Shown here piece after piece: positions 1 to 19,721 of a stretch of 64,000 nucleotides of DNA. Position 1 is the first letter of the stretch. Each line of letters opens with the position of its first letter. Made by a program: the position numbers and the translations under genes. The notes below the pieces were generated by a model. That model had not been told where the DNA came from. It did not search any database and worked only from the letters and a program-made list of their open reading frames with translations. This DNA is from an archaeon (GTDB lineage Archaea > Nanobdellota > Nanobdellia > Pacearchaeales > GW2011-AR1): assembly GCA_043810775.1 (NCBI GenBank), contig JBDRNU010000003.1, forward strand, positions 23,776 to 87,775, given 5' to 3'.

Positions 1-1
1 T

Positions 2-109
2 ATAAGTAGGTTTGAAACAAGCACCGGGATAAAACAGGAAGAAACTAATTGCTCTGGAAAAAAACAAAGAGATTATTTTTTTATTATTCCCCTTGGAATC
101 TCTCCATAA
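2..109 (+). CDS. 3' end of a gene truncated by the window edge (unknown product)
   Basis: Frame open from 2 to TAA at 107-109 (ISRFETSTG...IIPLGISP*); hand translation. Confidence 0.4.
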   Translation: MSRFETSTGIKQEETNCSGKKQRDYFFIIPLGISP

Positions 110-120
110 AGCTTAAATAT
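108..120 (+). promoter_or_regulatory. BRE/TATA promoter of SRP RNA
   Basis: aaagcttaaatat about 20-25 nt upstream of the RNA 5' end. Confidence 0.55.
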
Positions 121-139
121 GAAGTATTTCTAGTAAAAT

Positions 140-400
140 TGCAGACTAGGCTGGCACGCTAGCCCTGTGCCATTTGCCAGTGGGCTTTAGGCAAGCTGCA
201 AGGAGGGTGTGTGATACAGACTATAGAAAGTCTTTATTTGGACGTTGAGGTTTTGTCCTGCTCGATCTTGCTCTTGCGAAATGGGTCAGACCTTGATCGG
301 AGCAGCCCTAAACTTGAGTTAAGGTGCTTGTAGGGTAGCAAAGCTGAGAAAGAATAAAGGTAGCTTTTTACGGTTTGTTGAGCTATCCTCCGAGTCTGCA
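140..400 (+). ncRNA. ffs: Archaeal signal recognition particle (7S) RNA, reduced form
   Basis: Terminal helix TGCAGACT(140-147)/AGTCTGCA(393-400); Alu hairpins GGCAC/GTGCC and TTGCC/GGCAA with complementary loops AGCCC/GGGCT; helix 8 SRP54 motif GGGTCAGACC..GGAGCAGCCC (283-308); followed by a T-run. Confidence 0.95.
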
Positions 401-424
401 CTTTTTGTGAGGTGATTTCTTTAA

Positions 425-817
425 ATGAAAAAAAAAGATATAACTATTATGTTAGTTGATGATGATGTTGAATATGGAGAAATAGTTGTGAAGGGGATTC
501 AAATGCATGGATATTCTGTAATTTATTTTTCTAAAGGCAAGGAAGCTATAAATGCAATTAAGGATGGTAAAAAATATGATGCTGCTTTAATTGATTTATC
601 CCTTGAAGATATAAGTGGAGCAGAAGTTATTAGTGCTTCAAAAGATACTAATCCTAGCATAAGAGTTTATACTTTTACAGGTTATTCTATTAGTGAAGAT
701 GATGCTAAAAGATTAAGAGCTGATTGGCATATGAACAAATCTGATTTGTCTACTAAAGAGGGGAGAAAGTCGGTTTTTGAGAATATGGATTGTTATTTTA
801 GAATCAATGAGTCATAA
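425..817 (+). CDS. Single-domain response regulator (CheY-like receiver)
   Basis: IMLVDDD, ALIDLSL (phospho-Asp), FTG, MNK motifs; SD gaggtga upstream. Confidence 0.9.
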   Translation: MKKKDITIMLVDDDVEYGEIVVKGIQMHGYSVIYFSKGKEAINAIKDGKKYDAALIDLSLEDISGAEVISASKDTNPSIRVYTFTGYSISEDDAKRLRADWHMNKSDLSTKEGRKSVFENMDCYFRINES

Positions 818-852
818 GGAAGATTTAATAATTCTATCTCTTTATTTTTATC

Positions 853-1290
853 ATGAAAAAAAGAATACTGCATACTTTATTATTAATATTTCTCGCAGCT
901 ATATTAGTTAGCTTATTATGGGAGCTAGGCCACTCTAAATTATATGACTGGAATAAAGAACCATTAAAAAATGATTTTAATTTCTATATTTACAGAATAT
1001 TAAAATCAACAATCGGCGACGGAATATTTATACTGCTAATATTTTTGCTGAATTCTCTATTTAGACATAATTTTAAATGGATTTCAGAGCCCAGGAAGAG
1101 AGATTTTTTTATTTTGGCTGTATTAGGCATAGCTTTTGCAATTTTAATTGAGATACGGGCAAGAATGATGAATTTATGGAGCTATAATGAGCTAATGCCC
1201 ACTATATTTGGAATTGGAGTCACTCCTTTAATTCAGCTAGCAGCTACGAGCATGATTATCTTAATAGTATTAAGAAAAGTTTTAAAATAA
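853..1290 (+). CDS. Small multi-pass membrane protein
   Basis: Four hydrophobic segments; WSYNELMP..G.TPL.Q motif. Confidence 0.75.
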   Translation: MKKRILHTLLLIFLAAILVSLLWELGHSKLYDWNKEPLKNDFNFYIYRILKSTIGDGIFILLIFLLNSLFRHNFKWISEPRKRDFFILAVLGIAFAILIEIRARMMNLWSYNELMPTIFGIGVTPLIQLAATSMIILIVLRKVLK

Positions 1291-1321
1291 ACTTTATATA
1301 CTTATATCTTCTTAAATTGAC

Positions 1322-1837
1322 ATGAATAAAAGAGGGCAATTTTATATTGTAGCTGCTGTAATAATAATTATAGCGCTAATTAGCTTGGTGAGCATTACAA
1401 ATTATGTAAGAAACCAGAATAAAGAAACTAAAATTTATGATTTGAGCAAGGAGGTGGGTGATGAAACTGGAGAGGTTTATTCTTATGGAATTTACAATGA
1501 AGAGGATACCCAATTATTAATTAGGAGCTGGCTAAATGAATACGTGAATTATGCTAATAATTACGGGCCTTCTGACTGGCTATTTGTATATGGAAATTCA
1601 GATAATATTACTGCTCTAACTTTTACTAATTATACTGTAGGAAGCATTATCTTAGATTTTGGAGGGTCTGCACAGATTTACACACTAGATGAGACTCGCA
1701 GCCAGGGGCAAAGCTTTATACCTTTTGGAGATTATGTAAATGTAACATTTTTTAATTATGCTTATGATTTTGAATTAAAGAAAGGTGAAAACTTTTACTT
1801 TGTTATAAGAAAAGAGGGAGTAGTTGAAAGAGGCTGA
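1322..1837 (+). CDS. Type IV pilin-like protein (class III signal peptide)
   Basis: MNKRG/QFY plus hydrophobic helix; TATA aaactttatata ~22 nt upstream. Confidence 0.85.
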   Translation: MNKRGQFYIVAAVIIIIALISLVSITNYVRNQNKETKIYDLSKEVGDETGEVYSYGIYNEEDTQLLIRSWLNEYVNYANNYGPSDWLFVYGNSDNITALTFTNYTVGSIILDFGGSAQIYTLDETRSQGQSFIPFGDYVNVTFFNYAYDFELKKGENFYFVIRKEGVVERG

Positions 1838-1838
1838 T

Positions 1839-1868
1839 ATGATAAACAAAAGAGGATTGAGTAGATAA
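1839..1868 (+). pseudogene. Vestigial pilin 5' stub MINKRGLSR*
   Basis: 1839-1862 matches the pilin start 1965-1988 at 22/24 nt, then runs into a stop at the edge of the structured element. Confidence 0.7.
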
Positions 1869-1957
1869 CCTTTAGGAGGTTACCAACTGTCGAGACTAAA
1901 TCTTACTTATGTAAGATATTATCTCAACGAATTAACTTCCTACAAGAGTTAGTTAAT
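1866..1957. repeat. Structured dispersed element, copy 1
   Basis: AACCTTTAGGAGGTT.CCAACTGTCG-[hairpin]-CAACGAATTAACTTCCT..AGAGTTAGTTAAT, shared with 18712-18784. Confidence 0.85.
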
Positions 1958-1964
1958 GATTAAA

Positions 1965-2456
1965 ATGATAAATAAAAAAGGATTGAGTGAAGTTATAGCT
2001 TATGTATTGCTTATAGTAATAGCACTTACTTTGAGTGCTGTAGTTTATACTTGGATGAAAGGATACTTATTCGTACCTAGTGAAGTCTGCCCTGAAGGAG
2101 CGTCAATAATTATTCAAGATTATGATTGCAGTGAATTTCCTAAAATACAAGTACTACTAAATAATCATGGAAGGTATAACTTAGATGGATTTGTTATAAA
2201 AGGAAGCAATAACAGCCAGGGGCTTGTGATTAATCCTTTAGAGCCTATTCCTAACCCCAATATGTTTGAAGGAGGATTTATATTAGTTCCAGATTTCAGG
2301 CCAGGATTATCAATAAAAGAAAATTTTACATATTTTGAATTAAACAGCTTAAGCAGGATTGAAATTTCACCAATAATGTATGATGAGAAATCAGATAATT
2401 ATATTATTTGCGAGGAATCAGTAATAGTGCAACAGGTTGGAGGGTGCCCTCCATAA
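1965..2456 (+). CDS. Type IV pilin
   Basis: MINKKG/LSEVIAYVLLI class III signal; start moved from 1956 to 1965. Confidence 0.9.
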   Translation: MINKKGLSEVIAYVLLIVIALTLSAVVYTWMKGYLFVPSEVCPEGASIIIQDYDCSEFPKIQVLLNNHGRYNLDGFVIKGSNNSQGLVINPLEPIPNPNMFEGGFILVPDFRPGLSIKENFTYFELNSLSRIEISPIMYDEKSDNYIICEESVIVQQVGGCPP

Positions 2457-2488
2457 TATTTTTAAATGAGGTATTCTATTAATAAAAG

Positions 2489-2932
2489 ATGGTGAAAAAC
2501 AAAAAAGGGGTGAGTCCGGTTATTGCAACTGTTCTGCTTATTGCAATTGTAATAGTGATTGCAACTATAATTTTCTTATGGGCTAGAGGATTTATTAAAG
2601 AATCAATTATGAAGCAAGATAAGCCAGATTATCAAGCATGCAGAGAGATTAATCTAGAAACTGCAATTAATAATGATAAACTAGAAATTGTGAATAGAGG
2701 GAATATTCCCGTATATATTATTGATATTAATATGAGGGAAGGTGGAACAGTTTATAGGCAGACTGAAAAAATTGAACTGGGTCAAGGTGAAGCTAAAGTT
2801 ATTTCTGATAGTGAAGGCCCACATGGAGACTTTAGTGCTTATTCTGAAGTTGAATTAGTTCCAGCTATACTTGGTTTAAGAGGAAGCACAAAAACAATTA
2901 AATACTGTACTGAAGATACTATTCTAGCATAA
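2489..2932 (+). CDS. Archaeal type IV pilin (DUF1628-type N-terminus)
   Basis: KKG/VSPVIATVLLIAIV. Confidence 0.92.
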   Translation: MVKNKKGVSPVIATVLLIAIVIVIATIIFLWARGFIKESIMKQDKPDYQACREINLETAINNDKLEIVNRGNIPVYIIDINMREGGTVYRQTEKIELGQGEAKVISDSEGPHGDFSAYSEVELVPAILGLRGSTKTIKYCTEDTILA

Positions 2933-2933
2933 G

Positions 2934-3455
2934 ATGGTAAACAAAAAAGGGGTGAGTCCGGTTATTGCATCTGTACTTTTAATACTAGTAACGATAGTTG
3001 CTGTAGCTCTGATTTCAGCTTTTATAATACCAATGATAAAAGAGCAAATGACAGGAGGAGGAAATTGTTTTAAGGTTCTTGGAAAGATGGAAATAGATAG
3101 TGATGCAGGATATACTTGTAAAAATATAACTTCTGGAGAAACTATGGTGATGGTTAAGAGACAGTATATAGGTGATGAGGATATTAAAGTTACAAAAATT
3201 GTTTTTTCCCTTATTGGACAGGGCAATTCACAAGTAATCCAGATTTTTGACAATACAATAAATGAAAATGTGAGAAAATATAGTGGAAGCTATAATCAGT
3301 CTTTAACTTTGGTGCCAGAAGGCGGAGCACTGACTTATGTGTTCAATACAGGTTCAGCTGGCTTAGGCATTAATGTAGAATCAGTTGATGTAGCTCCTGT
3401 TCTTGGTGACGGAACAACTTGTAATCCAGTTTCTTCTAAAATGCCTGAATGTTAA
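2934..3455 (+). CDS. Archaeal type IV pilin (DUF1628-type N-terminus)
   Basis: KKG/VSPVIASVLLILV. Confidence 0.92.
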   Translation: MVNKKGVSPVIASVLLILVTIVAVALISAFIIPMIKEQMTGGGNCFKVLGKMEIDSDAGYTCKNITSGETMVMVKRQYIGDEDIKVTKIVFSLIGQGNSQVIQIFDNTINENVRKYSGSYNQSLTLVPEGGALTYVFNTGSAGLGINVESVDVAPVLGDGTTCNPVSSKMPEC

Positions 3456-3550
3456 CATCAAGAAAACCCTAAGTTTTATATTGGGTTTTTAGGATGCTCC
3501 AAAATTGGAAAAAAATTTAAAGAGGCCACACCTTAAAAGGGAGTGGTTTC
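3456..3550. repeat. Intergenic hairpin cluster
   Basis: AAAACCC..GGGTTTT, TCCAA-AA-TTGGA, GAGGCCAC-ACCTT-AA-AAGG-GA-GTGGTTTC. Confidence 0.5.
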
Positions 3551-3561
3551 AATTTATGGAC

Positions 3562-4086
3562 ATGGAAAATAAAGGACAGGTTTGGGTGGAGACAGTAATT
3601 TATACTCTTATAGGTCTGACAATAATTGGCATCTTGCTTACAATTGTAACCCCTAAGATAAATGAAACTCGCGATAAAGCAGTAGTTGAACAGAGTGTTG
3701 AGGTTCTTAATTTTATAGATGCAAAGATAAACGACATAAAGTATGTTGCTGGAAATTCAAGAAACCTTCAATTGAGCATAAAAAGCGGCTTGATAATTAT
3801 TGACTCGCAAAATGACACAATTGAATTTATTTTAAAAGGAAGCAACTATAAATATAGTGAGCCAGGAATAATAATTGAAGAGGGAAAGGTAAAAGTGCTT
3901 AGTGTTGAAAGCGGTAAAAAATATGATATTTATCTGGATTTAAATTACTCAAGGAAATTTAACATAACTTATGATGGAATAGATGATATAAGGACTATTC
4001 CAAAAGCAGGTGTTTCTTATGATCTAATCTTATCTAATGAAGGTATAACTGGTGAGCTTACTGAGATAAGATTTCACTTACAATAA
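3562..4086 (+). CDS. Type IV pilin-like protein
   Basis: MENKG/QVWVETVIYTLIGL; start moved to the ATG that gives a short class III leader. Confidence 0.85.
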   Translation: MENKGQVWVETVIYTLIGLTIIGILLTIVTPKINETRDKAVVEQSVEVLNFIDAKINDIKYVAGNSRNLQLSIKSGLIIIDSQNDTIEFILKGSNYKYSEPGIIIEEGKVKVLSVESGKKYDIYLDLNYSRKFNITYDGIDDIRTIPKAGVSYDLILSNEGITGELTEIRFHLQ

Positions 4087-4133
4087 ATTTAAATATAATG
4101 TTAGTTTTCTAAATTAAAAGAAGGTAAATTATA

Positions 4134-5684
4134 ATGGATCAAGTAATGAAAACCGAAAATGCAATTTATATAAATTTGAATCCATCAATCCCTGCTTTGC
4201 CAAGAGTCTCTGACAAGAGTAAAGTTGATGCAAGGTATGTTTTAATTTCTCCTTACGCTTATACACATATATATTGGGACCCAACCAGGAATGAAGTAGT
4301 TTATGAGGTTGAAGAGCCGCTTTTAAATGAAGAGGAAAAAGCTGTTTTAGAAAGTGTTGAAGACGGAATGAAAGAAATAATTAATATAAATGTCATGGTT
4401 GAAAAAACTACTGAAGCTATGATTGAATATATTGACAAGACTGCTAAATTATTGATTTCAGAGATTAATATGAAGATAACTGAAGAAACTTACAAGAAGA
4501 TATTTTATTATTTATACCGAGATTTTATAGGACTAAATGAAATTGAAGCACTTTCACGAGATTATTTTATTGAAGATATTGAGTGCAATGGAATAAATAC
4601 ACCAGTTTATATTGTCCATAGGGTTTACAGGAACTTAAGGACTAATATAATGTTTACTGATGTTGATTACTTAGCTAGTTTTGTTGAAAAACTGGCCCAG
4701 AGATGCGGCAGATATATAAGTTATGCTTCTCCCTTACTAGATGGGAGTCTTCCTGATGGGAGCAGAATAAATGCTACTTATACTACAGACGTTACTAGCA
4801 AAGGTCCTACTTTTACAATAAGAAAATTTACTAAAATACCTTGGACTCCTCCACAGTTAGTTTCACTGAATACGCTAAGCCCGGAAATGCTAGCTTATTT
4901 CTGGCTTTTAATACAGTATAAATCCAATATACTTATTACAGGAGGCACTGCTTCTGGAAAAACTACTTTATTGAATGCTATAGCTTTTTTCATACCTCCA
5001 GAAGCAAGAGTGGTATCTATAGAAGATACGCGAGAGCTTAACTTGCCTAGAGAAAACTGGCTTCCAAGTGTTGCAAGAACTGCTATTGGAATTGGCAAAG
5101 TAGGAGAGGTAGACTTATTTAGCTTACTTAGAAACTCTTTTAGGCAAAATCCAGATTATGTAATTGTGGGGGAGGTAAGAGGAAAAGAGGCATTTGTATT
5201 ATTTCAGGGTATGGCTTCAGGGCACTCAAGTATAAGTACAATTCATGCCGACTCCGTAGATACTGTAATAAAGAGGCTTGAGACCCCACCTATAGAATTA
5301 TCACCTACACTAGTAAATACATTAGATGCTATTGCTATAATGAGCCATGCAATTGTAAACAAGCAGGAAACAAGAAGACTTAGAGAGATAGTTGAGGTAG
5401 TTAATGTTAATCCAGATGGTGTTGCCATAACAAATACTCCTTTTATGTGGGATCCTGCTAAGGATAAATTCTTTTTTAAAAAAGACAGCAAAGTCCTGCA
5501 AAAAATATCACATAGATATGGTATTTCACAAGAAGCTTTGTCCAAGGAGTTTGGACTAAGGTCAAAATTCATATATGAGCTATTTAGAAGAAAGATATAT
5601 GGTTTTGAAGATGTCCAGAAGCTTGTAAACCAGTATTATAAAGACCCTGTTGCAACACTAAGGCAGTTTGGAGTTATTAAGTGA
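4134..5684 (+). CDS. Type IV pilus/type II secretion ATPase (FlaI/VirB11/PilB family)
   Basis: Walker A GGTASGKTT, SIEDTRE, RQNPDYVIVGEVRG, STIHA. Confidence 0.95.
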   Translation: MDQVMKTENAIYINLNPSIPALPRVSDKSKVDARYVLISPYAYTHIYWDPTRNEVVYEVEEPLLNEEEKAVLESVEDGMKEIININVMVEKTTEAMIEYIDKTAKLLISEINMKITEETYKKIFYYLYRDFIGLNEIEALSRDYFIEDIECNGINTPVYIVHRVYRNLRTNIMFTDVDYLASFVEKLAQRCGRYISYASPLLDGSLPDGSRINATYTTDVTSKGPTFTIRKFTKIPWTPPQLVSLNTLSPEMLAYFWLLIQYKSNILITGGTASGKTTLLNAIAFFIPPEARVVSIEDTRELNLPRENWLPSVARTAIGIGKVGEVDLFSLLRNSFRQNPDYVIVGEVRGKEAFVLFQGMASGHSSISTIHADSVDTVIKRLETPPIELSPTLVNTLDAIAIMSHAIVNKQETRRLREIVEVVNVNPDGVAITNTPFMWDPAKDKFFFKKDSKVLQKISHRYGISQEALSKEFGLRSKFIYELFRRKIYGFEDVQKLVNQYYKDPVATLRQFGVIK

Positions 5685-5714
5685 AGATTTCTTAAGATTG
5701 AATATACTTATTAA

Positions 5715-5767
5715 TATATTACTATTAGTAATATAGTAAAGTTTATATATTATTAGTATATTACTAA
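5715..5767 (+). promoter_or_regulatory. Internal promoter flanked by palindromic operator-like sites
   Basis: Inverted repeat TATATTACTA-T-TAGTAATATA (5715-5735), BRE/TATA aaagtttatata (5738-5749), near-palindrome TTAGTATATTACTAA (5753-5767). Confidence 0.65.
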
Positions 5768-5770
5768 ATT

Positions 5771-5935
5771 ATGGGAAATATAACTCTTAAAGGATTTATA
5801 TGCGAGAGATGCACTCATAAATGGATTCCTAGAAATTTACAAGAGCCTAGAGTATGTCCAAAATGCAAGTCACCTTACTGGAATGTTCCCAGGAAGAAGA
5901 AAAAGAAAATGCAAAAAAAAGGAGGGTTGAAATGA
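5771..5935 (+). CDS. 54-aa zinc-ribbon protein with basic tail (not in ORF track)
   Basis: MGNITLKGFICERCTHKWIPRNLQEPRVCPKCKSPYWNVPRKKKKKMQKKGGLK; two CxxC pairs. Confidence 0.85.
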   Translation: MGNITLKGFICERCTHKWIPRNLQEPRVCPKCKSPYWNVPRKKKKKMQKKGGLK

Positions 5936-6099
5936 TAGACTTATATAAATTGCAGGAAATTGCACAGCTTGTAGAAGCAATGAATGAAGCTGTCATGAAG
6001 CTGGAGATTGCTGAAAAAAAACAGGATTTTGAAAAAATTAAACGTGGAAAAGATGAAATCATGAATTTTAAAAATAATATAGATAGAATTTTAAAATGA
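5932..6099 (+). CDS. Small helical protein (55 aa)
   Basis: ATGA overlap with the zinc-ribbon gene and GGAGG upstream favour start 5932 over 5854. Confidence 0.7.
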   Translation: MIDLYKLQEIAQLVEAMNEAVMKLEIAEKKQDFEKIKRGKDEIMNFKNNIDRILK

Positions 6100-6149
6100 A
6101 GAAATTAAAAAATTCAGCATTTCAAACTCCTGATGGAGATTTAAGATGA
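6096..6149 (+). CDS. 17-aa mini-ORF with ATGA overlaps at both ends
   Basis: MKKLKNSAFQTPDGDLR*; start overlaps the stop at 6097-6099, stop overlaps the ATG at 6146. Confidence 0.35.
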   Translation: MKKLKNSAFQTPDGDLR

Positions 6150-7498
6150 ACATTGAGGAACTAAAATATAATATTGAAATGGAAAAAGAAATAGTCAGAG
6201 AGCTATATTCTTTTGCAAATCAGTTTAATGAGCTATCACAGGAGACTTCAGCTGAAAAGTTAGGAAGAATAATAAAAAAACAAGAAGAGAGAGTAATGTT
6301 ACAAGCTATTAATTCTTTGATAGGCCAGTTAAGGATAATAAATAACTCTATTCCAGACTTGCTTAAAGGAGTTTCAGTATATAAGCAACTACCTGGTGAA
6401 AATACAATTTCCCAGCAAAAAAAGCTTGTAAGTTTGAAGTATACTCCTGCATTTTCAAGAAAAAACATGAATGTAACTATAAAAGAAAAAGATATGAGGG
6501 ACTTTATGAGTGAACTTACAATAAGCAAGAATACTATAAAAAGAATAAAAAAATATAAAGAAGGCAAAAAAGAGCATTTAGTTGAATTTAAAAAAGCCAA
6601 TAAATATGGAAGATTTGCAAATAAGCTTTTTTCTAAATCATCTAAAACTTTAATTAAAGAAGGTTATTTTAGAGCTGCTATCAATGACTTAAGAAAATCC
6701 AATTTATCTGTTCTTTCAGGCACTTATGTTTCAATGATAATACTTTCAACTATTCTGGCATTTATTGCCGGAGTATTTTTATATGTATTTTTGATTTTTT
6801 TTAAAGTTTCTCTAACCTGGCCAATAATATCTGTTATTGACACTTCAATAGAGAGATTACTCTGGAATTTATGCATAATAATCATATTGCCTATTTTAAC
6901 ATTTTTAGCATTTTATTATTATCCTGCATCAGAAGCTATGTCTTTAAAGAGAAAAATCGAGCAGGAAATTCCTTTTGTAGCTATTCATATGTCTGCAATA
7001 GCTGGCTCTGGCATAGAACCTAGCCAGATATTCAAAATAATTGCATTAAGCAGCGAATATAAATATACCAGGCAAGAAATAAGAAAAGTGCTCAATCAAA
7101 TTAATGTTTATGGCTATGACTTATCTAATGCCCTGAAAAATTCTGCCAGAGCTACTTCAAGCCCAAAATTGTCAGAACTTTTTAAAGGATTGGCAACTAC
7201 TATAACTAGCGGGGGCAGTTTAAATGAATTTCTTGACAAAAGATCTGAATCCTTGCTGTTAGATTATAAATTAGAAAGAGAAAAATATTCTAAGATTGCG
7301 GAAACATTTATGGATATTTACATTAGTGTAGTTATAGCAGCGCCTATGATAATGATGCTATTATTAGTATTGATTAATATAAGTGGAATTAGTATTGGCC
7401 TTAGCATGATGGGATTTACTTTAGTTATCATACTCATAGTTTTTTTAATAAATATTGTATTTTTGGTGTTTTTGCAAATAAAACAACCAGCTTATTGA
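6146..7498 (+). CDS. Pilus platform membrane protein (TadC/FlaJ, T2SS F domain)
   Basis: EIPFVAIHMSAIAGSG, YGYDLSNALK, ELFKGLATTITSGGSL; several TM helices. Confidence 0.9.
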   Translation: MNIEELKYNIEMEKEIVRELYSFANQFNELSQETSAEKLGRIIKKQEERVMLQAINSLIGQLRIINNSIPDLLKGVSVYKQLPGENTISQQKKLVSLKYTPAFSRKNMNVTIKEKDMRDFMSELTISKNTIKRIKKYKEGKKEHLVEFKKANKYGRFANKLFSKSSKTLIKEGYFRAAINDLRKSNLSVLSGTYVSMIILSTILAFIAGVFLYVFLIFFKVSLTWPIISVIDTSIERLLWNLCIIIILPILTFLAFYYYPASEAMSLKRKIEQEIPFVAIHMSAIAGSGIEPSQIFKIIALSSEYKYTRQEIRKVLNQINVYGYDLSNALKNSARATSSPKLSELFKGLATTITSGGSLNEFLDKRSESLLLDYKLEREKYSKIAETFMDIYISVVIAAPMIMMLLLVLINISGISIGLSMMGFTLVIILIVFLINIVFLVFLQIKQPAY

Positions 7499-7504
7499 GA
7501 TAAA

Positions 7505-8356
7505 ATGGAACTAGAAAAAAAACATATTATGGGCATAGTTTTTGCATTTATAATTTTGACAGTTAATATTATATTTTTAAGAGAAGAGGAAATATTTTAC
7601 TTTATTATAGGAATTGCCCTGCTAATTGCTGTTTTGCCTTTTGTTGCTTCTTTATCACTTGAAAGTTCAAGGGCTAAAGAAAACGATGAAATGTTCTTGG
7701 AATTTTCCAGGAATCTGGTAGAAAGTGTTAAATCTGGAACTCCTGTAAGCAAAAGCATTCTTCATGTTAGTGATAAAAACTACGGCTCTCTTTCCCCACA
7801 TATAAAAAAGCTGTCTAATCAAATAGCTATTGGGATTCCTGTTAAAGAGTCTTTAGAAATATTTGCCAGAGATGTAAATAGCTCAACTGTATCCAGAGCC
7901 GTCACTTTAATAAGTGAAGCTGAACAGGCAGGGGGAAGTATTGATATTATATTAGAATCTGTAGCTAAGTCTGTATCTACTTCTGAAAAACTGAAGAAAG
8001 AGAGGAAAGCTGCAATTTACAGCTTAATTGTACAGGGTTATATAATATTTTTTGTATTTATTGTAATAATGTTGATTATGCAGTACAAAATCCTTGCAAT
8101 GACAGTTGGAATAACTAGTACTGAAGGATTTGGGACAAGCAGCAGCGTAGAACAATTAGGAATTGGGCAGCAGCAAATCTCGCCTGAACAGTTTTCAATA
8201 CCTTTTTTGATGCTTTTAATAACTCAGGGTTTTTTTGCTGGAATTATTATTGGGAAGCTATCAGAAGGTACAATTAAAGCTGGGCTTAAGCACTCATTTG
8301 CGCTTGTTATAATATCTGTATTAATCTCAACAGGAGCTAATGCATTTTTCAGCTAA
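7505..8356 (+). CDS. Pilus platform membrane protein (TadC/FlaJ, T2SS F domain)
   Basis: FLEFSRNLVESVKSG, YGSLS, EAEQAGG, GKLSEG..AGLKH. Confidence 0.9.
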   Translation: MELEKKHIMGIVFAFIILTVNIIFLREEEIFYFIIGIALLIAVLPFVASLSLESSRAKENDEMFLEFSRNLVESVKSGTPVSKSILHVSDKNYGSLSPHIKKLSNQIAIGIPVKESLEIFARDVNSSTVSRAVTLISEAEQAGGSIDIILESVAKSVSTSEKLKKERKAAIYSLIVQGYIIFFVFIVIMLIMQYKILAMTVGITSTEGFGTSSSVEQLGIGQQQISPEQFSIPFLMLLITQGFFAGIIIGKLSEGTIKAGLKHSFALVIISVLISTGANAFFS

Positions 8357-8387
8357 AATTTATAAAGAAAGAAAAATTACTAATAAA

Positions 8388-9077
8388 ATGAATAAAAGAG
8401 GAATGAGCCATATTGAAATGATTGCTTCATTTTTAATATTTGTAGGCTTCCTGCTGTTTTTGCTGGCTTTTTTAAACCCAATTAAGGAAAGCCCTATTAA
8501 TGAAAATTTACTTGATTTAGCTGAAAGGGGGATTATAGAAAGAGGAAGTGTTGAAATATTTAAAGCACAGATGTATTTAAAACAGCCATATTCCGGATGT
8601 TTTGGGTATGATTTAGATGTTAGCAGTGTTGTTGTTTTTAATGAAAAAGGAAATATTTTACAGGCTGATTATTCAGGAGGATATTTATATATAGATGCTA
8701 CTTCTGGAGAGCTTTTTACAATACACTCTTTTATGGATTTAGAAGAAAATACATTTTCACCTGGCAGCTGCAGTATTTTTGACGAAGAGAATGTCACTTT
8801 AGGGCTATCAAAGAATTCTAAGGTTATATATTTTAATAGGCTAAGCAATTTCAGCCAGGAATATAATGATAATTATGAATCTGTAAGAAATAGTGTAAAT
8901 CTACCTTCAAGAAATGATTTTGGGTTTATACTAAGAACTAGTGGGGGAAATGAGATTATAAGAGCTATGAAAAGCACGCCTTCAGGGTTAAACGCGGTAG
9001 CTAGAGAAATACCTGTAGAGGTCTTATACAGAAATGGAACTATTTCATATGCTGTACTAAATGTTCGTATTTGGTGA
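8388..9077 (+). CDS. Minor pilin-like protein
   Basis: MNKRG/MSHIEMIASFLIF; start moved to 8388, own TATA aatttataaa upstream. Confidence 0.85.
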   Translation: MNKRGMSHIEMIASFLIFVGFLLFLLAFLNPIKESPINENLLDLAERGIIERGSVEIFKAQMYLKQPYSGCFGYDLDVSSVVVFNEKGNILQADYSGGYLYIDATSGELFTIHSFMDLEENTFSPGSCSIFDEENVTLGLSKNSKVIYFNRLSNFSQEYNDNYESVRNSVNLPSRNDFGFILRTSGGNEIIRAMKSTPSGLNAVAREIPVEVLYRNGTISYAVLNVRIW

Positions 9078-9087
9078 GAATTGAAAC

Positions 9088-9477
9088 ATGAATAAAAAAG
9101 GATGGTTACGAATTTTTGAAGCTTTTATAGCAGTAATACTAATTGCAGGTGTGCTTATAGTCTTGGTTTTAAATCAGAGAGCTGACAGGACTTTTGAAGA
9201 TGATATTCATAATTTAGAAAGGTCTATTTTAGTTGAGATTGCAGATAACCCTTCTTTAAGAAACAGCACCTTAAAAACAGATTTAGCCCCCATACTAGCT
9301 GTAGCTTCTCCAAAAATCCCACCTGGAATGAATTTTACTATGAGGGTATGCCCCATTGATGAGATATGCGGCTTGCAAGAATATAGAGAAGAGGTTTATG
9401 TTGAGGAAATTGTAATTTCCTCGACAATTGAAGAGTATGCTCCTAAAAAACTAAGGATATTTATATGGGAAGAATGA
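9088..9477 (+). CDS. Minor pilin-like protein
   Basis: MNKKG/WLRIFEAFIAVILI. Confidence 0.85.
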   Translation: MNKKGWLRIFEAFIAVILIAGVLIVLVLNQRADRTFEDDIHNLERSILVEIADNPSLRNSTLKTDLAPILAVASPKIPPGMNFTMRVCPIDEICGLQEYREEVYVEEIVISSTIEEYAPKKLRIFIWEE

Positions 9478-9881
9478 TGGAAAAATTCAAATTCCTTGAG
9501 CATACAGCTGATATAAAATTTCAGGCTTACGGCAAGAGCATTGAAGAGGCATTTGAAAACTCGGCTTTAGCAATGTTTAACTGCATGTATGACAAGAAAG
9601 TTCAGCGCAAGATTAAGAAAAAAATAAAAGTTAAAGGAAAAGACAATGAATCCCTGCTTTATAACTTTCTTGAGGAATTATTATTTCTACTCGATACTGA
9701 AAATTTCTTTTTATCTTCGGTAAAAGTGAAAATAAAAGGATTTGAATTGCAAGCAAGCTTGGAAGGAGATAAAGCCAAGAGTTACGAAATTCACTTAGAT
9801 GTAAAGGCAGTTACTTATAATGAGATGTTTGTCAAGAAGCAAGGGAATAAATTTATATGCCAGGTAGTTGTGGATGTTTGA
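9474..9881 (+). CDS. Archease (RtcB cofactor)
   Basis: FLEHTAD, VKAVTY, C-terminal VVDV. Confidence 0.95.
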   Translation: MMEKFKFLEHTADIKFQAYGKSIEEAFENSALAMFNCMYDKKVQRKIKKKIKVKGKDNESLLYNFLEELLFLLDTENFFLSSVKVKIKGFELQASLEGDKAKSYEIHLDVKAVTYNEMFVKKQGNKFICQVVVDV

Positions 9882-9933
9882 AAAATCAAGAGATTTTTCA
9901 AGCCACAAAAATCCCCATAAACTCGGATTTTTG
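9878..9933. repeat. Double AAAAATC/GATTTTT hairpin element (possible bidirectional terminator)
   Basis: TTGAAAAATC-AAGA-GATTTTTCAA and CAAAAATCC-N10-GGATTTTTG between convergent genes. Confidence 0.7.
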
Positions 9934-9945
9934 ATATTTGAATGA

Positions 9946-10308
9946 TTAAAGGTTATCCCAAAAAGTTCCATTATTAAGCGTATTTTTTAAGTCAAGTAAA
10001 TCATCGTAATCAACAGGATTTTCTCTTGTACCTAACTTTATTGAGGGACTTAATACTTTTTTAACTGTCTTTATATTTTTAGGAGTATTATCTCTTTTTT
10101 CATATAAGATCCTAGTTCCAACATTATCCTCCATTTGATGCTCCTCTAAAGTAATTGTTCTTCCACACCCTGTACATTGAAAATAAGGAAATTCTACCTC
10201 TCCACCAGGTAGTTCAACTAATAAAGTTCCATTTCTTTGATAATTATGTTTATGCATGTCTAAAATATTCACATAAAAAATATCTCTTAATTTTTCTATT
10301 ATTGACAT
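9946..10308 (-). CDS. Hypothetical protein with HxH..CxxC putative Zn site
   Basis: HKHNY and FQCTGCG; lies antisense between archease and rtcB. Confidence 0.65.
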   Translation of the reverse strand: MSIIEKLRDIFYVNILDMHKHNYQRNGTLLVELPGGEVEFPYFQCTGCGRTITLEEHQMEDNVGTRILYEKRDNTPKNIKTVKKVLSPSIKLGTRENPVDYDDLLDLKNTLNNGTFWDNL

Positions 10309-10426
10309 TTTATTGTTGTATTTTTCTTAATTTAATAATATTATCGCCAATTTCTGTGTCTTTTTAAAGATTTCTATATTTAAATTATAAGGTAAAAATT
10401 ATAAACTTGATATTATACATTTAAGT

Positions 10427-11845
10427 ATGGAAATAAAAAAAATATCTAGCTATGAATGGAAAATAGCTAAAGAAGGAAGGATGAAAGTTCCAGTAGTAAT
10501 TTATGCTAGCGAGAAGCTTCTTGAAGCAATGAAACAGGATATAACTTTAGAGCAAGCCAGAAATGTAGCTTGTCTGCCAGGAATAGTTGAAAAATCAATT
10601 GTATTACCAGATGCCCATCAGGGCTATGGTTTTAGTATTGGAGGGGTAGCCGCATTTAAACTAGACACTGGAATTATCTCACCAGGAGGAGTAGGATATG
10701 ATATTAATTGTGGAGTTAGATTACTAACTAGCAACCTTAAAAAATCAGATATTGAAAGTAAAAAGAAAGAGATAATTAACCAGCTTTTTAGGGATGTTCC
10801 TAGCGGGGTGGGCAAAGGGGGAGCTATTAAGATAACAAGAGATGATATTAAAGAAATTCTGGAAAAAGGAAGTGAGTGGGCTGTAAAGAAAGGATATGGT
10901 ATAAAAGAAGATTTGGAAAGAACAGAAGATAATGGTTGCATTAAAGGAGCTAAAGCTGAAGATGTTTCTGATAGAGCTATAAAAAGAGGGTTGCCTCAAC
11001 TTGGAAGCTTAGGAGCTGGAAATCATTTTCTAGAAATACAGGAAGTAGATGAAATTTATGACAAGGAAATAGCTAGCAAATTTGAAATAAAAGAAAAAGG
11101 GCAAGTAACTGTAATGATTCATTGTGGCTCAAGAGGACTAGGGCATCAGGTAGCTAGTGATTATATCAAGCTAATGGAAGATAAGTATGGATGGAAAAAC
11201 CTGCCAGATAGGGAACTAATTAATGCGCCAATTAATTCTGAACTTGGGAAAAAATACTTAAGTGCAATGGCAGCTGCAGCTAATTTTGGTTTCTGCAACA
11301 GGCAGATGATTATGCAGTGGGTAAGAGATTCTTTCAATAAAATATTTGGAAAAGTTAAGCTAGATTTAATTTATGATGTTGCCCATAATGTAGCTAAAAT
11401 TGAAGAGCATAATGTCAACGGTAAAATGACGAAATTATGCGTTCATAGGAAAGGAGCAACTAGAAGCTTTGGACCAGGAAGAAAGGAGCTTCCTGAAATT
11501 TACAGAAAAACCGGACAGCCGATTCTCCTACCTGGAAGCATGGGTACTGCTTCATACTTGCTAGTAGGAACTGAAAAAGCAGAAGAGTTGACATTTGCAA
11601 GTACTGCCCACGGAGCTGGCAGGAGCTGCAGTAGAACTTCTGCTTCAAAAAATTTAAGAGGTGAAGATATAAAACAAGAGCTTGAGAAAAAAGGTATAGA
11701 AATAAAGGCTGGAAGCTGGAAAGGACTTGTTCAAGAAGCCCCTCAAGCTTACAAGGATATTGATGAGGTTGCCAAGGTTTCAGATGAAGTTGGTTTAGGC
11801 AAGCTAGTAGCTAGGTTAAAGCCAATTGCAGTAATGAAGGGATAA
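10427..11845 (+). CDS. rtcB: RNA ligase RtcB
   Basis: PDAHQGYG, GYDINCGVR, GNHFLE, HCGSRG, HN, HRKGAT, HGAGR. Confidence 0.98.
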   Translation: MEIKKISSYEWKIAKEGRMKVPVVIYASEKLLEAMKQDITLEQARNVACLPGIVEKSIVLPDAHQGYGFSIGGVAAFKLDTGIISPGGVGYDINCGVRLLTSNLKKSDIESKKKEIINQLFRDVPSGVGKGGAIKITRDDIKEILEKGSEWAVKKGYGIKEDLERTEDNGCIKGAKAEDVSDRAIKRGLPQLGSLGAGNHFLEIQEVDEIYDKEIASKFEIKEKGQVTVMIHCGSRGLGHQVASDYIKLMEDKYGWKNLPDRELINAPINSELGKKYLSAMAAAANFGFCNRQMIMQWVRDSFNKIFGKVKLDLIYDVAHNVAKIEEHNVNGKMTKLCVHRKGATRSFGPGRKELPEIYRKTGQPILLPGSMGTASYLLVGTEKAEELTFASTAHGAGRSCSRTSASKNLRGEDIKQELEKKGIEIKAGSWKGLVQEAPQAYKDIDEVAKVSDEVGLGKLVARLKPIAVMKG

Positions 11846-11896
11846 ACAATTAATTTAAAGGTAGAATTTAAAAATAAAGATTTCTTATATTAATTA

Positions 11897-14395
11897 ATGA
11901 AAAGAGGACGGTTACTAATATATTTTTTATTTGTAGTTTTATTAATTGGAAGTGTTAGTGCTTGGACTGTTACTAGCAATCCAACTGGAGGGGATGATGG
12001 GGCACTATCATCAGTAAGGGATGGTGATTATTTATATGCTGGTGGATTTGATTCTCTTCAATGGAGAATTGAGAAGAGAAGTATAATTGATGGAAGTTTA
12101 GTTACAAGTTTTAGTGGTGATGGAATTGTTACCAGTAATCCAAGTAGTTCTTCTGATGCTATATACTCTTTAGCAATTGATTCTTCGTATATATATGCTG
12201 CTGGATATGATTATTCTCCAGGTAATAATGCTCAATGGAGAATAGAAAAAAGGGATAAAACAACAGGTGCTTTAGTTACAAGTTTTGGTGGTGATGGCGT
12301 AATTACTTTTAATCCAAGCGATACTGATCGTCTTTATGGGGCCGAAATTATTAAATCGATAGCAGTTGATGATAATTATCTATATATATTTGGAGAGGAT
12401 TATACCATTACTTATAATTCTAGATGGAGAATAGAAAAAAGGGATAAAACAACAGGTGCTTTAGTTACAAGTTTTAGTGGGGATGGAATTATAATTAGCA
12501 ACCCTAGTGATTCTTATGATACTCCATATTCTATAAAAGTTGATTCTTCTTATTTATACTTAGCAGGATCTTCTGTTGACGCTCCACATTGGAGAGTTGA
12601 AAAGAGAGATAAAACAACAGGTGCTTTAGTTACAAGTTTTGGTGGTGATGGTGTGATTGGAAGTACTGTTTCAACTGGATGGTTTTGCATTTTAGGATTA
12701 CGTTCGTCAACTATTGAAGGCAATTATTTATATCTGGCAGGAAATGAGTGCACTGATGGTGGTGGGCTTCGGATAAGAATTGAAAAAAGAGATAAAACAA
12801 CAGGTGCTTTAGTTACAAGTTTTGGTGGTGATGGGATAGTACAAGGTGCATCAAGTAGCGGCATTGCAAATTCTATAACCTCTGATTCATCTTACTTATA
12901 CATTGCTGGAGAAACATATTCTGGAAGCGAATCTTACTGGAGAGTTGAAAAGAGAGATATAAATACGGGTAATTTAGTTACGGCCTTTGATGGGGATGGC
13001 TTATTCACTCTCAATCCTAGTGGAGGATATGATTCTATTTACTCTGCTACAGTTGATTCACTTTCATTATATCTTGTTGGATATCAATCTAGAACCATTC
13101 CTCCTGAAAGCAGCAACGGCCGATGGAGAATCCAGAAAATAGATAAAACAACTGGGGGGCCTCCAATAGTCCAAGTTTGTGGTGATAATAACATAGATCT
13201 TGGAGAACAGTGTGATGGAACCTCAACAGGCAGTTGTTTAGGAGCTTGTGATATGACTGATCCTGATGCCTGTACTTGTTATGAGTTTTGCGGGGATAAT
13301 ATTACACAAAACCCTAATGATGATGGAGAAAATGAATCATGCGATGATGGAAATCTTATTAATGATGATGGATGCAGAAACAATTGCGTACTTCCAGAAA
13401 TTTGCGGTGATGGAATTGATAATGATTTTGATGGTTTTACTGATTGCAGTGACAGTGATTGTATAGGTAGTCCGTTATGTTTTGGCATATCAGAAGCAAA
13501 CTGGACTAATATGGAAGGAATTAAAATATTTAATGCTGACTTAAATGACAGAGTTAAATTATTTGCAACTGGAACAGCTTTTACAGGAGAGAACTTGACT
13601 TTTGAAATCTGGAAAGATATAAAATGGTGGTTTGACAGCAAGATAGCAAGTCTTGCTGGATTTGAATCAGTAAGCTGGAAAGCTAGTGAGCAAGGAAAAT
13701 ACTATTTCAAGGTTGCTGAAGAGGGTGGAACCCCTATTAAATCGGATAATTTAACTGTCAGCAGTTTTGAAAATAATAGCGCGCCAATTGCAGGCATTGT
13801 TAATCCAATTAATAAAAGAATATATTATAAAAATGTAGCTGTGAATTTTATCCAAAATAGCTCTGATATCGACGATAATATTACTATTTTATGGGATTTT
13901 GGTGATGGAAGCACATCAACTAATTATAATGACACCCATATTTACACTAGCACTGGGCAAAAGAGTATTAAACTTAAAGTTACAGATGAGAGAGGTTTAT
14001 TTGATGAAGACCAGGTTAGTATACTAATTGTTGATCCTAATGCTGCTGATGGGAAATATTTATTTACTTACATTAGTGAGCCAAAATTTGGACAGATTTT
14101 TGACCAGCAGGAAGTTAGATTTAATGCAAGCAGTACATATGCTATACATATTAATGTATCTTCAGGAGGCAATATATACTGTGTAGCTGGTTATTGCCCA
14201 GCTAGCACAGAATTAGGAGATCCAATAATTGATATAAGCCCTGGATTTAGCCCTTTGAAATTCTTTTGGGTATTTGATAAAGATAAATCTGGAAATAAGT
14301 TGAACTGGTCTTATCAGGGAATTTATGGGTCTGAATTTAAATGGACTTTTTCAGATACAGGAAGACATACCGCATTGCTTACTGTTGAATATTAA
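11897..14395 (+). CDS. Secreted surface protein: repeat beta-propeller, Cys/Asp-rich linker, PKD domains
   Basis: Signal peptide; seven WRIEKRDKTTG-type repeats; CGD..CDDGN..GC repeats; WDFGDG PKD motif. Confidence 0.85.
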   Translation: MKRGRLLIYFLFVVLLIGSVSAWTVTSNPTGGDDGALSSVRDGDYLYAGGFDSLQWRIEKRSIIDGSLVTSFSGDGIVTSNPSSSSDAIYSLAIDSSYIYAAGYDYSPGNNAQWRIEKRDKTTGALVTSFGGDGVITFNPSDTDRLYGAEIIKSIAVDDNYLYIFGEDYTITYNSRWRIEKRDKTTGALVTSFSGDGIIISNPSDSYDTPYSIKVDSSYLYLAGSSVDAPHWRVEKRDKTTGALVTSFGGDGVIGSTVSTGWFCILGLRSSTIEGNYLYLAGNECTDGGGLRIRIEKRDKTTGALVTSFGGDGIVQGASSSGIANSITSDSSYLYIAGETYSGSESYWRVEKRDINTGNLVTAFDGDGLFTLNPSGGYDSIYSATVDSLSLYLVGYQSRTIPPESSNGRWRIQKIDKTTGGPPIVQVCGDNNIDLGEQCDGTSTGSCLGACDMTDPDACTCYEFCGDNITQNPNDDGENESCDDGNLINDDGCRNNCVLPEICGDGIDNDFDGFTDCSDSDCIGSPLCFGISEANWTNMEGIKIFNADLNDRVKLFATGTAFTGENLTFEIWKDIKWWFDSKIASLAGFESVSWKASEQGKYYFKVAEEGGTPIKSDNLTVSSFENNSAPIAGIVNPINKRIYYKNVAVNFIQNSSDIDDNITILWDFGDGSTSTNYNDTHIYTSTGQKSIKLKVTDERGLFDEDQVSILIVDPNAADGKYLFTYISEPKFGQIFDQQEVRFNASSTYAIHINVSSGGNIYCVAGYCPASTELGDPIIDISPGFSPLKFFWVFDKDKSGNKLNWSYQGIYGSEFKWTFSDTGRHTALLTVEY
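12254..12823 (+). repeat. Four identical 33-bp intragenic repeats
   Basis: GATAAAACAACAGGTGCTTTAGTTACAAGTTTT at 12254, 12443, 12608, 12791. Confidence 0.9.
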
Positions 14396-14452
14396 CAATT
14401 ATATCGACACAATAATGGTTAGATTTATAAATAAAATTTAACTTAAGAGAAT

Positions 14453-15286
14453 ATGGAAAAAAGAGGAATAATAGTAGTATTGTTAGTTATATTTTTAGCT
14501 GGACTTGCAATCGCTGCTGAGGGAAATGCAACTACTGAATTTGAAACTCAATTTGGCAGCTGTTCTGCTGATGGATTGCACTGGATTGATGAATTAGGTG
14601 TATCTCATGCAACTACATTTGATCCTAGTACTTATGATTTGATAGAAGATTCAACTTACTGCACTTTGGAGCCAGGAGGATGCTGCCCAAGCGGATTTAC
14701 CTGTGTTCCATGTAGCCCTCCTGCAGGACCTGGCTGTGGATGCCAAGGATATACTTCTGAGTATTGCTCAAACGGAAGCACTAGTGGAGGGCAGATAGTA
14801 TATTGTGCAGATTATCCTGACCAAGCAAACTGCACAATTGATTCTTGCGGGGCTGTAACTTGGGAGTGTTTATTAGATGAAAACAATTGTGAGGGATATA
14901 TCTGGAATGGAACAATGTGGTGGGCTTCTGTAAATGAAAGCTGCAAGTGGAACAGCACTGGCAATGCATGTTATTTTCATATGAGGTGGGTTCCAACAAT
15001 ATGCTTTAATGGGTGTGATGATTCTGGATATTATTATTGTGATAGAACTACCACTAAGGGTAATTGCCAGGGAGGAAAGATGCTTGTAAGCTGGGGTGAA
15101 ATATTATATCATTCTATTAGTGGAGAGGTTTTTGATGCAAATTTAGAAACTTTATATGGCTGTCAAGATGGCTCAAGATATTATAACTGTGGATTTAGTG
15201 AACAGCTAGGTTTTTTTAATATTTGGGGCATTATTCTCGCATTAATGTTAATTAGCTTATACTATGTTGTGAGAGAGAAAAGATGA
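14453..15286 (+). CDS. Cysteine-rich secreted protein with C-terminal membrane anchor
   Basis: Signal peptide, many Cys, LGFFNIWG-TM-basic C-terminus. Confidence 0.8.
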   Translation: MEKRGIIVVLLVIFLAGLAIAAEGNATTEFETQFGSCSADGLHWIDELGVSHATTFDPSTYDLIEDSTYCTLEPGGCCPSGFTCVPCSPPAGPGCGCQGYTSEYCSNGSTSGGQIVYCADYPDQANCTIDSCGAVTWECLLDENNCEGYIWNGTMWWASVNESCKWNSTGNACYFHMRWVPTICFNGCDDSGYYYCDRTTTKGNCQGGKMLVSWGEILYHSISGEVFDANLETLYGCQDGSRYYNCGFSEQLGFFNIWGIILALMLISLYYVVREKR

Positions 15287-18051: not shown

Positions 18052-18064
18052 AAATTAATAAAAA

Positions 18065-18706: not shown

Positions 18707-18711
18707 AAAAT

Positions 18712-18784
18712 AAACCTTTAGGAGGTTTCCAACTGTCGTGCTTAACAGCACAACGAATTAACTTCCTTCATAGAGTTAGTTAAT
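18712..18784. repeat. Structured dispersed element, copy 2
   Basis: Same three conserved blocks as 1866-1957, with central hairpin GTGCT-TAAC-AGCAC. Confidence 0.85.
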
Positions 18785-18810
18785 ATTCAAAATGATAAAA
18801 AAAGAGGAAA

Positions 18811-19188
18811 ATGAGCAAAAATAAACTGACATTAAGTTTTATACCTTATTCAGAAATTGAAAACTTAGACAGTGTCAAGAGAGTTAAAAAAATACTAGAT
18901 ATTGTCCTAAAAAATAGAATAGTAATATTACAGGGAAGGCTTGCTGCTACTGAAGAAGGCTCATTAATCCAGAGTACAATGGCTTTAGTTGGCAAGATAA
19001 AAAGTTTCAGAGGAGTTGAACTTGCAGTTATTACTGGAAATCAGGCTTCTTTTATGAGCAGATTAAGACACGGACTGGCTAAAATGCTAATAGGAGACAG
19101 TGATGCCCTCACTATAATAGGTCCAGCTTCTATAGTCAGAGAAATTAAGAGAGACCCTAGCAAGATTGATTTAATGCTTAAGAGATAA
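18811..19188 (+). CDS. DUF2073 family protein (OapB-type)
   Basis: IVILQGRL..EE..LI..TM, FRGVEL, LTIIGPA. Confidence 0.88.
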   Translation: MSKNKLTLSFIPYSEIENLDSVKRVKKILDIVLKNRIVILQGRLAATEEGSLIQSTMALVGKIKSFRGVELAVITGNQASFMSRLRHGLAKMLIGDSDALTIIGPASIVREIKRDPSKIDLMLKR

Positions 19189-19225
19189 ATATTTATACTT
19201 CTTATTATTTATTTTTATTATTAAA

Positions 19226-19708: not shown

Positions 19709-19721
19709 TAAGCTTTAAATA

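Follow-up and report, generated by a model that had tools for sequence, protein, structure and literature searches.

The window analyzed here is a 64,000-nucleotide stretch of the genome of a Pacearchaeales archaeon (hereafter G000; 995 kb in 26 contigs), and it contains two related stretches, here called copy 1 and copy 2, which lie on the plus strand at 1863-1964 and 18710-18784. We consider, with a probability of roughly 0.7 for this reading as a whole, that both represent a small mobile element, non-coding and non-autonomous, of Pacearchaeota/Woesearchaeota-like DPANN archaea. Copy 1 is flanked by two pilin-like open reading frames (ORFs), the upstream one of which ends at 1837, and is an insertion 24 nt into the pilin gene. 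Copy 2 is older and intergenic; it begins 4 nt past the stop codon (18704-18706) of a GTPase-like ORF, and the next ORF follows 26 nt after its end. The features of the two loci are as follows.

1839..1862, plus strand: upstream copy of the 24-nt target duplication (ATGATAAACAAAAGAGGATTGAGT), a stranded pilin gene start that matches 1965-1988 at 22 of 24 positions.
1863..1964, plus strand: element copy 1, long form, consisting of 5′ AG, hairpin 1, a linker, hairpin 2 with an extended stem, hairpin 3, and the 3′ tail GATTAAA.
1866..1882, plus strand: hairpin 1 of copy 1 (TAACCT/AGGTTA, loop TTAGG).
1889..1928, plus strand: hairpin 2 of copy 1 (base GT.GAGA/TCTC.AC; upper stem ATCTTAC/GTAAGAT).
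1931..1957, plus strand: hairpin 3 of copy 1 (ATTAACT/AGTTAAT).
1965..1988, plus strand: downstream copy of the target duplication, which is the working start of the pilin-like gene (ATG at 1965; gene end at 2456).
18710..18784, plus strand: element copy 2, short form, with hairpin 1 at 18712-18728, hairpin 2 at 18735-18754 (GTGCT/AGCAC), and hairpin 3 at 18757-18784.
18785..18810, plus strand: 3′ tail of copy 2, in which 18792-18808 (ATGATAAAAAAAGAGGA) matches the duplicated pilin start of copy 1 at 17 of 18 nt.

The initial annotation had described the two stretches as an unrecognized structured element sharing three blocks, and pairwise alignment confirmed these blocks (AACCTTTAGGAGGTT[A/T]CCAACTGTCG, 25/26; CAACGAATTAACTTCCT, 17/17; AGAGTTAGTTAAT, 13/13). 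The compensatory change that it reported in hairpin 1 (TAACCT/AGGTTA in one copy and AAACCT/AGGTTT in the other) is also present, and the central stems of the two copies, although unlike in sequence, are both still paired. A covariance model (R1) scored copy 1 at 104 bits (E 4.8e-16) and copy 2 at 80 bits (E 1.5e-11). Both copies are better folded than their dinucleotide shuffles on either strand, as RNA or as DNA (z −3.1 to −5.1), with z scores of −5.07 as RNA and −3.95 as DNA for copy 1 and of −3.13 and −3.73, respectively, for copy 2. Copy 1 is a mosaic, since its hairpin 1 and linkers are those of the short-form group but its central hairpin is long. The 3′ tail of copy 1 (1956-1964) also supplies an in-frame ATG at 1956, 9 nt before the original pilin start codon, and ORF finders therefore place the pilin start inside the element. 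The segment AAAATGATAAA..AGGA, previously listed as a shared feature downstream of both copies, lies outside the fold; in copy 1 it is the real pilin start duplicated by the insertion, and in copy 2 it is a fragment of a flank of this kind that was carried along. The pilin-start fragment in the tail of copy 2 is read as probable donor flank that came along with the element. In a comparison of four metagenome DNA runs with window positions 1-20000, window-identical contigs spanned both copy 1 (1831-1981) and copy 2 (18688-18838). Among the public runs listed, none of RNA contained this genome.

The element is not confined to the two copies originally recognized. A BLAST search of G000, followed by a covariance model built from 13 copies, gave 13 full copies (E ≤ 5.6e-9) together with a weaker one (C7:36880, given as contig and position) and a fragment consisting only of hairpin 3 (C23). 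Some of the G000 counts below use 14 listed copies, and the pooled tests use 25 copies. The element is approximately 70-170 nt long and non-coding, and its general layout is a 5′ AG, three hairpins, short conserved linkers (CCAA..G.CG and AC...A), and the tail GTTAAT-G.TTA; the central hairpin is long in eight and short in five of the full G000 copies. Three short-form copies, on contigs C4, C7, and C9, carry an extra two-hairpin 5′ module of approximately 90 nt that is 100% identical over 58-61 nt, and their overall identity is 90-94%. This likeness points to recent activity. The extra module had no other occurrence in G000 or in the sister species G001, which belongs to the same genus and yielded 11 matches at E ≤ 5. 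With a broader covariance model, matches were found in 5 of 151 genomes of the family, G000 included, and the exact short-form pattern was present in 5 of 401; a few other genera of the family have one to four copies each. The element-bearing genomes identified were G000, G001, G117, G125, G165, and G185. A stricter short-form pattern gave two stretches in a collection with one genome per species, from Candidatus Pacearchaeota and Candidatus Woesearchaeota metagenome-assembled genomes, nine stretches in metagenomes, and no match in viral contigs. Copies without hairpin 3 come after full copies at C2:22742 and in genome G117. On the metagenome contig L126, from another organism, two free copies (4313-4391 and 4906-4982) each lie directly upstream of a gene with a pilin-like class III signal-peptide start, as copy 1 does. 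In addition, two paralogous surface-protein genes of G000 (C2:52500-52545 and C2:38664), which are 84% identical over 520 nt, both end at the element; one is followed by a full copy and the other only by the 5′ arm of hairpin 1 and a TCA tail. The reduced copy may be an internal deletion or an excision scar.

To examine orthologous sites, the 800-nt flanks of each G000 copy were compared with 920,001 nt of G001, which is almost its whole genome. At the site of copy 1, G001 has the upstream gene followed by a single pilin start and no element, and in G000 the 24-nt start (ATGATAAA.AAAA.AGGATTGAGT) stands on both sides of the element. The repeat formed by 1839-1862 and 1965-1988 was equalled by none of 200 shuffles, and it occurs exactly twice in the genome when up to three mismatches are allowed. 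The orthologous G001 sites are empty for copy 1, C4, C7, C9, and C26:9973, and the G001 intergenic stretch corresponding to copy 2 contained no element. In the reverse direction, two G001 copies correspond to empty sites in G000, and one locus is filled in both species. At C4, the duplication consists of 13 nt of a B recognition element/TATA sequence that G001 holds once; the duplications at C7, C26:9973, and C26:7151 are 10-13, 16, and 30 nt long, respectively, and that at C26:9973 includes the start codon of the next gene. When the 70-nt flanks of the 25 copies were locally aligned and compared with 200 shuffles, repeats of 15-40 nt that no shuffle equalled were found for 12 copies, and the significant duplication lengths included 15, 15, 16, 19, 21, 24, 25, 25, 30, 36, and 40 nt. 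Each of four repeats checked occurs exactly twice in the genome, so these four are not a common promoter module. Duplications were also found in other genera, namely, a 27-nt repeat in G165, one of approximately 70 nt beside a resident copy in G185 C10, and one of approximately 12-18 nt in G117 that covers the first bases of a tRNA-Leu gene. Overall, duplications of between 10 and about 45 nt were seen, rising to about 70 nt where a copy was already resident next to the insertion. The empty orthologous sites and the target duplications show that the element inserts into new sites, and of the three readings offered by the initial annotation, that of a non-autonomous element resembling repetitive extragenic palindromes (REPs) or MITEs (miniature inverted-repeat transposable elements) came nearest to the truth on this evidence.

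Alternatively, the flanking repeats could have arisen around a hairpin sequence already in place, by local tandem duplication or by recombination. Tandem arrays do exist (G001 C6, G185 C10, L131, and C2:22742), and the repeat there includes the end of the neighboring element. However, five sites in the sister genome have neither the element nor the second repeat, the spacers of the G185 C10 array are nearly identical while its elements differ in hairpin 1, and the element is found at many unrelated loci. We therefore regard this explanation as very improbable.

The hairpins of the inserted element are under selection. In a 24-copy alignment, we counted covariation at 11 base pairs, five in the basal part of hairpin 2 and six in hairpin 3. 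Paired cells made up 96.9% of 260, compared with 84.0 ± 1.3% in shuffles and at most 48.5% with slid partners, and two-sided changes were present in 6 of the 11 pairs (39 cells), a level reached by none of 500 shuffles. At the base of hairpin 2, four of the five pairs have changed on both sides among the 24 copies. The stem of hairpin 3 is retained in all 24, with ATTAAC/GTTAAT changed to ATCAAC/GTTGAT in six, and none of the 11 pairs examined showed a one-sided change of the G-U type. Minimum-energy folds contain spurious pairs, which makes G-U counts taken from them uninformative. For hairpin 1, the 35 copies compared have 21 different stems, most of which are perfect Watson-Crick stems of 7-8 bp, with swaps such as AACC/GGTT, AAGC/GCTT, AATC/GATT, and AGTTC/GAACT. 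Since the copies are related, the independent events are fewer than these counts suggest; nevertheless, compensatory changes in all three hairpins bear out the earlier suggestion of selection on structure. The possibility that hairpin 1 is built from the target at each insertion was rejected, as its arms bear no likeness to the duplications at the site, and its variants are distinguished by compensated pairs. The reverse strand was the more stable one in 22 of 25 copies (sum −583 versus −507 kcal/mol), but folding energy leaves the functional strand undecided because the hairpins are Watson-Crick paired on both strands. A Watson-Crick-only pattern is expected of a requirement at the DNA level or on two strands, and RNA is compatible with it as well.

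The copies are placed and oriented nonrandomly relative to genes. The nearest upstream ORF lies on the strand of the element for 22 of 25 copies (binomial p = 1.6e-4) and the downstream ORF for 19 of 25 (p = 0.015). Seven copies have their start at most 4 nt from the upstream stop codon, and the end of six is at most 6 nt from the downstream start codon. A TATA-like TTTAWA ends at most 8 nt from the 5′ junction in 6 of 25 copies, compared with 3.3% of random positions (p = 1.3e-4), and C4 is a seventh case that was missed by the coordinates used in the test. Three of the 14 listed G000 copies lie directly after a same-strand tRNA gene (tRNA-Thr, tRNA-Lys at C9, and tRNA-Ile), and for copy 1, C26:9973, and G001 C37, the insertion lies a few codons inside a gene and the duplication restores the start. 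The preferred landing sites are just behind TATA boxes, at the ends of tRNA genes, and just inside gene starts. Insertion there is harmless because the long duplication restores the promoter or the start codon.

The same observations bear on the proposal that the element is a small RNA gene family or a cis-regulatory, switch-like RNA, whose hairpins and alternative pairing of AGGAGGTT with AACTTCCT regulate the downstream gene. All of the hairpins covary, the co-orientation with neighboring genes means that the plus strand is probably transcribed, and several copies lie directly behind a duplicated promoter. In copy 1, the long-range AGGAGGTT/AACTTCCT pairing is the minimum-energy fold as RNA. 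The Shine-Dalgarno-like switch, however, is not a feature of the family because the AGGAGG loop is found in only 6 of the 14 listed G000 copies and is confined to one subfamily. Moreover, copies stand after stop codons, after tRNAs, inside gene starts, and behind TATA boxes, and not in a single type of leader; orthologous sites in the sister species lack the element; G-U pairs are absent from the 11 tested pairs; both strands fold equally well; and Rfam contains no match. Taken together, these results make a regulatory RNA improbable as an explanation of the family, and the reading as a riboswitch that sequesters a Shine-Dalgarno sequence was not supported. The element is a selfish element and not a riboswitch, although an element of mobile origin could still have a secondary role as RNA.

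At the 5′ junction of the inserted copies, 1-3 nt (AG in four copies) separate the duplication from hairpin 1, and the only word there is a loose (T/A)AG. At the 3′ junction, a spacer of 0-36 nt lies between the conserved end GTTAAT-G.TTA and the duplication. In C26:7151, C16, and C26:9973, which have no resident element upstream, the duplication opens with 8-12 nt identical to the end of the element, for which we can offer no explanation other than homology-guided joining. Terminal inverted repeats were sought by comparing the first 30 nt with the reverse complement of the last 30 nt, and only 2 of 25 copies gave p < 0.05.

A site-specific cut by a classical transposase does not fit the family because the duplications are long and variable, the 3′ ends are fuzzy and carry flank, the junctions show short homologies, and copies are modular or truncated. 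These four features agree with a model in which a single strand is copied and then either primed on a nicked target or switched to it. We tentatively propose a copy-and-paste route, to which we give somewhat less than even odds. A single-stranded copy would begin immediately 5′ of hairpin 1, span all three hairpins, and end at a variable point within the donor 3′ flank. Two nicks some distance apart would open the target to which the copy is joined; a few bases of homology to the target would position the 3′ end of the copy, and fill-in synthesis would then duplicate the stretch between the nicks. Such a process would be target-primed or template-switch synthesis and not classical transposition, and the strand could be DNA or RNA.

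Searches for a mover covered selected families, namely, reverse transcriptase, Cas1, TnpB, Y1, and tyrosine recombinases. No reverse transcriptase (PF00078) exceeded the cutoff in G000 or G001, and the sole match, of 15 bits, is in a 631-aa ORF that by eye encodes a KH/beta-lactamase-fold RNase. Neither Cas1 nor TnpB was found in G000 or G001. Both genomes encode two tyrosine recombinases; enzymes of this type are not known to make target duplications. A Y1 transposase of the IS200 type (135 aa, 97.8 bits) was detected in G001, as a lone gene at 89-496 on the minus strand of C33 (L073), a 2.5-kb contig on which it lies beside Cys-rich surface-protein genes and is flanked by GC-rich hairpins unlike those of the element; G000 gave no Y1 match. 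A missing gene proves little, since the two genomes are only 80% and 85% complete. Self-BLAST of the genome for a parent element returned only paralogous surface and enzyme genes, as judged by eye. Rfam at gathering scores gave no match to the element, only small-subunit rRNA, and in E-value mode only chance-level microRNA-type matches on it. Neither a ribozyme, as considered in the initial annotation, nor any other Rfam family was matched. An archaeal signal recognition particle (SRP) RNA (RF01857, 77.3 bits, E 1.8e-17) lies at window positions 139-401 on the plus strand; the default scan missed it because 77.3 bits is below the gathering score of 96.5, and the read depth over this interval is far above that of the rest in all four metagenome runs.

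The Y1 gene raises the question of whether the element could be a hairpin-ended derivative of IS200/IS605, similar to palindrome-associated transposable elements (PATEs) or REPs, that is moved as single-stranded DNA by a Y1 (HUH) transposase. The hairpins, the lack of inverted ends, the strand bias, and the Watson-Crick-only stems would suit recognition as single-stranded DNA, and G001 does encode such an enzyme. IS200/IS605 elements are not known to make a target duplication, whereas duplications of 10-45 nt are the rule here. In addition, the ends of the G001 Y1 gene do not resemble the element, no Y1 was found in G000 despite the recent C4, C7, and C9 copies, and no TnpB was found. We consider this origin quite unlikely.

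The element shares features with several known systems without matching any of them. It resembles archaeal and other prokaryotic MITEs in being small, non-coding, multicopy, intergenic, patchy among relatives, and flanked by target duplications. However, it lacks terminal inverted repeats, its duplications are long and variable (10-45 nt) instead of short and fixed, and neither a parent insertion sequence nor a DDE transposase was seen among the selected families searched. With the IS200/IS605-derived PATEs and the REPs that accompany REP-associated tyrosine transposases (RAYTs), it shares hairpin richness, strand orientation, Watson-Crick compensation, and the lack of inverted ends. It differs from them in its duplications, in having only the loose (T/A)AG in place of a fixed short target word, and in that the only Y1 transposase is in the sister genome and has unrelated ends. 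Short interspersed nuclear elements (SINEs) and processed retro-copies likewise have variable duplications, 3′-junction homology, carried 3′ flank, and truncated copies, but the present family has no A-rich or simple tail and no reverse transcriptase that the search found, includes 3′-truncated copies, and resides in an archaeal host with a 1-Mb genome. Casposon-derived elements are also unlike it, because Cas1 and inverted ends are absent here and the duplications vary; the casposon duplication is about 14-15 nt. No description of the element was found in the archaeal or DPANN literature, as judged from titles and abstracts.

In other organisms, the element also occurs within tRNA genes. Among the stretches found with the stricter short-form pattern, it lies inside a tRNA gene at three distinct metagenome loci, where ARAGORN with introns allowed gave complete cloverleaves whose anticodon loop is interrupted by 77-81 nt; the covariance-model scores of these copies were 44-54 bits. 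Two of the loci, L124 and L127, are different tRNA-Asp(GTC) genes, and L125, whose sequence is identical to L132, is Gly(GCC) according to ARAGORN and Cys(GCA) by eye. The boundaries in L124 and L127 consist of the anticodon stem, an AAC bulge, a 4-bp helix (CTGT with ACAG or GCAG), and a CAG bulge; they form a clean bulge-helix-bulge motif, and splicing would leave the loop CTGTCAC. L125 showed only a relaxed fit to this motif, by eye. The tRNA-Asp gene of G000 is intronless and has the same acceptor stem as the L127 gene. None of the G000 and G001 copies lies within a tRNA gene, and the long tRNA introns of these genomes are unrelated sequences. At free copies, the bulge-helix-bulge motif was matched in 11 of 25, which is the level in shuffled flanks (about 0.45), and by neither window copy. 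The free copies are therefore probably not spliced out, and excision through this motif was rejected for them. ARAGORN found 26 tRNA genes in G000 without introns allowed and 37 with them, and none in the 64-kb window; eight G000 tRNAs have hairpin introns of 33-68 nt unrelated to the element (e.g., C10:25930-26059, C15:144294-144435, and C7:62740-62873).

The tRNA loci might suggest that the free copies are retro-copies of an excised tRNA-intron RNA, with a tRNA intron as the master copy in the manner of a SINE. Variable duplications, 3′-junction homology, and carried 3′ flank, all seen here, are hallmarks of target-primed reverse transcription, as known from the biology of SINEs and long interspersed nuclear elements (LINEs). 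Furthermore, the 5′ AG of the free copies matches the A37-G at the 5′ edge of the intron. The free copies, however, bear donor flank, which an excised intron would lack, and some of them are truncated at the 3′ side; no reverse transcriptase was found, and the tRNA genes of G000 and G001 contain no copy. Retro-copying from an intron thus seems unlikely.

Several observations weigh against a mobile element spread by the proposed copy-and-paste route. The families searched yielded no mover; an RNA intermediate would need a reverse transcriptase, which was found in neither G000 nor G001, and 3′-truncated copies that retain only hairpins 1 and 2 are not what target-primed reverse transcription predicts. 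Thirteen of the 25 copies have no significant flanking repeat, including copy 2 (p about 0.25). The sequence of G001 is only about 70-80% identical to that of G000, so that the intergenic alignments are approximate. The four metagenome runs yielded no element-free contig, as none among the joints listed skips copy 1 or copy 2. The orientation counts use crude ORF calls (≥70 aa), and selection, such as that against T-runs in the opposite orientation, may account for the bias instead of the mechanism. Likewise, the 8-12 nt of element tail upstream of three duplications could have another origin.

The occurrence of one family both outside and inside tRNA genes bears on the gain of archaeal tRNA introns. 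A comparable case is the recurrence of tRNA introns in Thermoproteales ("intron transposition"; Fujishima et al. 2010, cited in PMC4090602 and 10.64898/2026.10.13.758758), where likewise one intron family bounded by bulge-helix-bulge motifs is found in different tRNA genes. Within the available text of these sources, the 2014 review (PMC4090602) describes the mechanism of archaeal tRNA intron transposition as unknown, and the 2026 preprint on Asgard tRNA introns (10.64898/2026.10.13.758758) leaves the arrival route open. The same portions of text do not report members of the Thermoproteales or Asgard intron families outside tRNA genes, with duplications and empty sites, as found here. The abstract of PMC3293823 proposes intron gain via an integrated 1.8-kb recombinase-encoding element, which is a different thing from the present element.

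The link could run in either direction, from element to intron or from intron to element. One possible, though doubtful, scenario is a self-spreading archaeal "proto-intron", that is, a mobile hairpin element acting at the DNA level that inserts near promoters and tRNA genes; where it lands in an anticodon loop that can pair with its tail, the splicing endonuclease would remove it, and it would persist as a canonical intron. Because the duplications rebuild promoters, start codons, and tRNA ends, over a dozen copies are tolerated in a 1-Mb genome that has hardly any spacer. With no inverted ends, no known mover, and duplications several times longer and more variable than those of transposases, the element would represent a route of spread not described for archaea. 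Since it is seen both free and as a canonical tRNA intron, the question of how introns arrive becomes testable. If the proto-intron scenario is true, it would provide the long-sought route of archaeal tRNA intron gain, together with a new insertion mechanism, either enzyme-independent or dependent on an unknown enzyme, that makes very long duplications.
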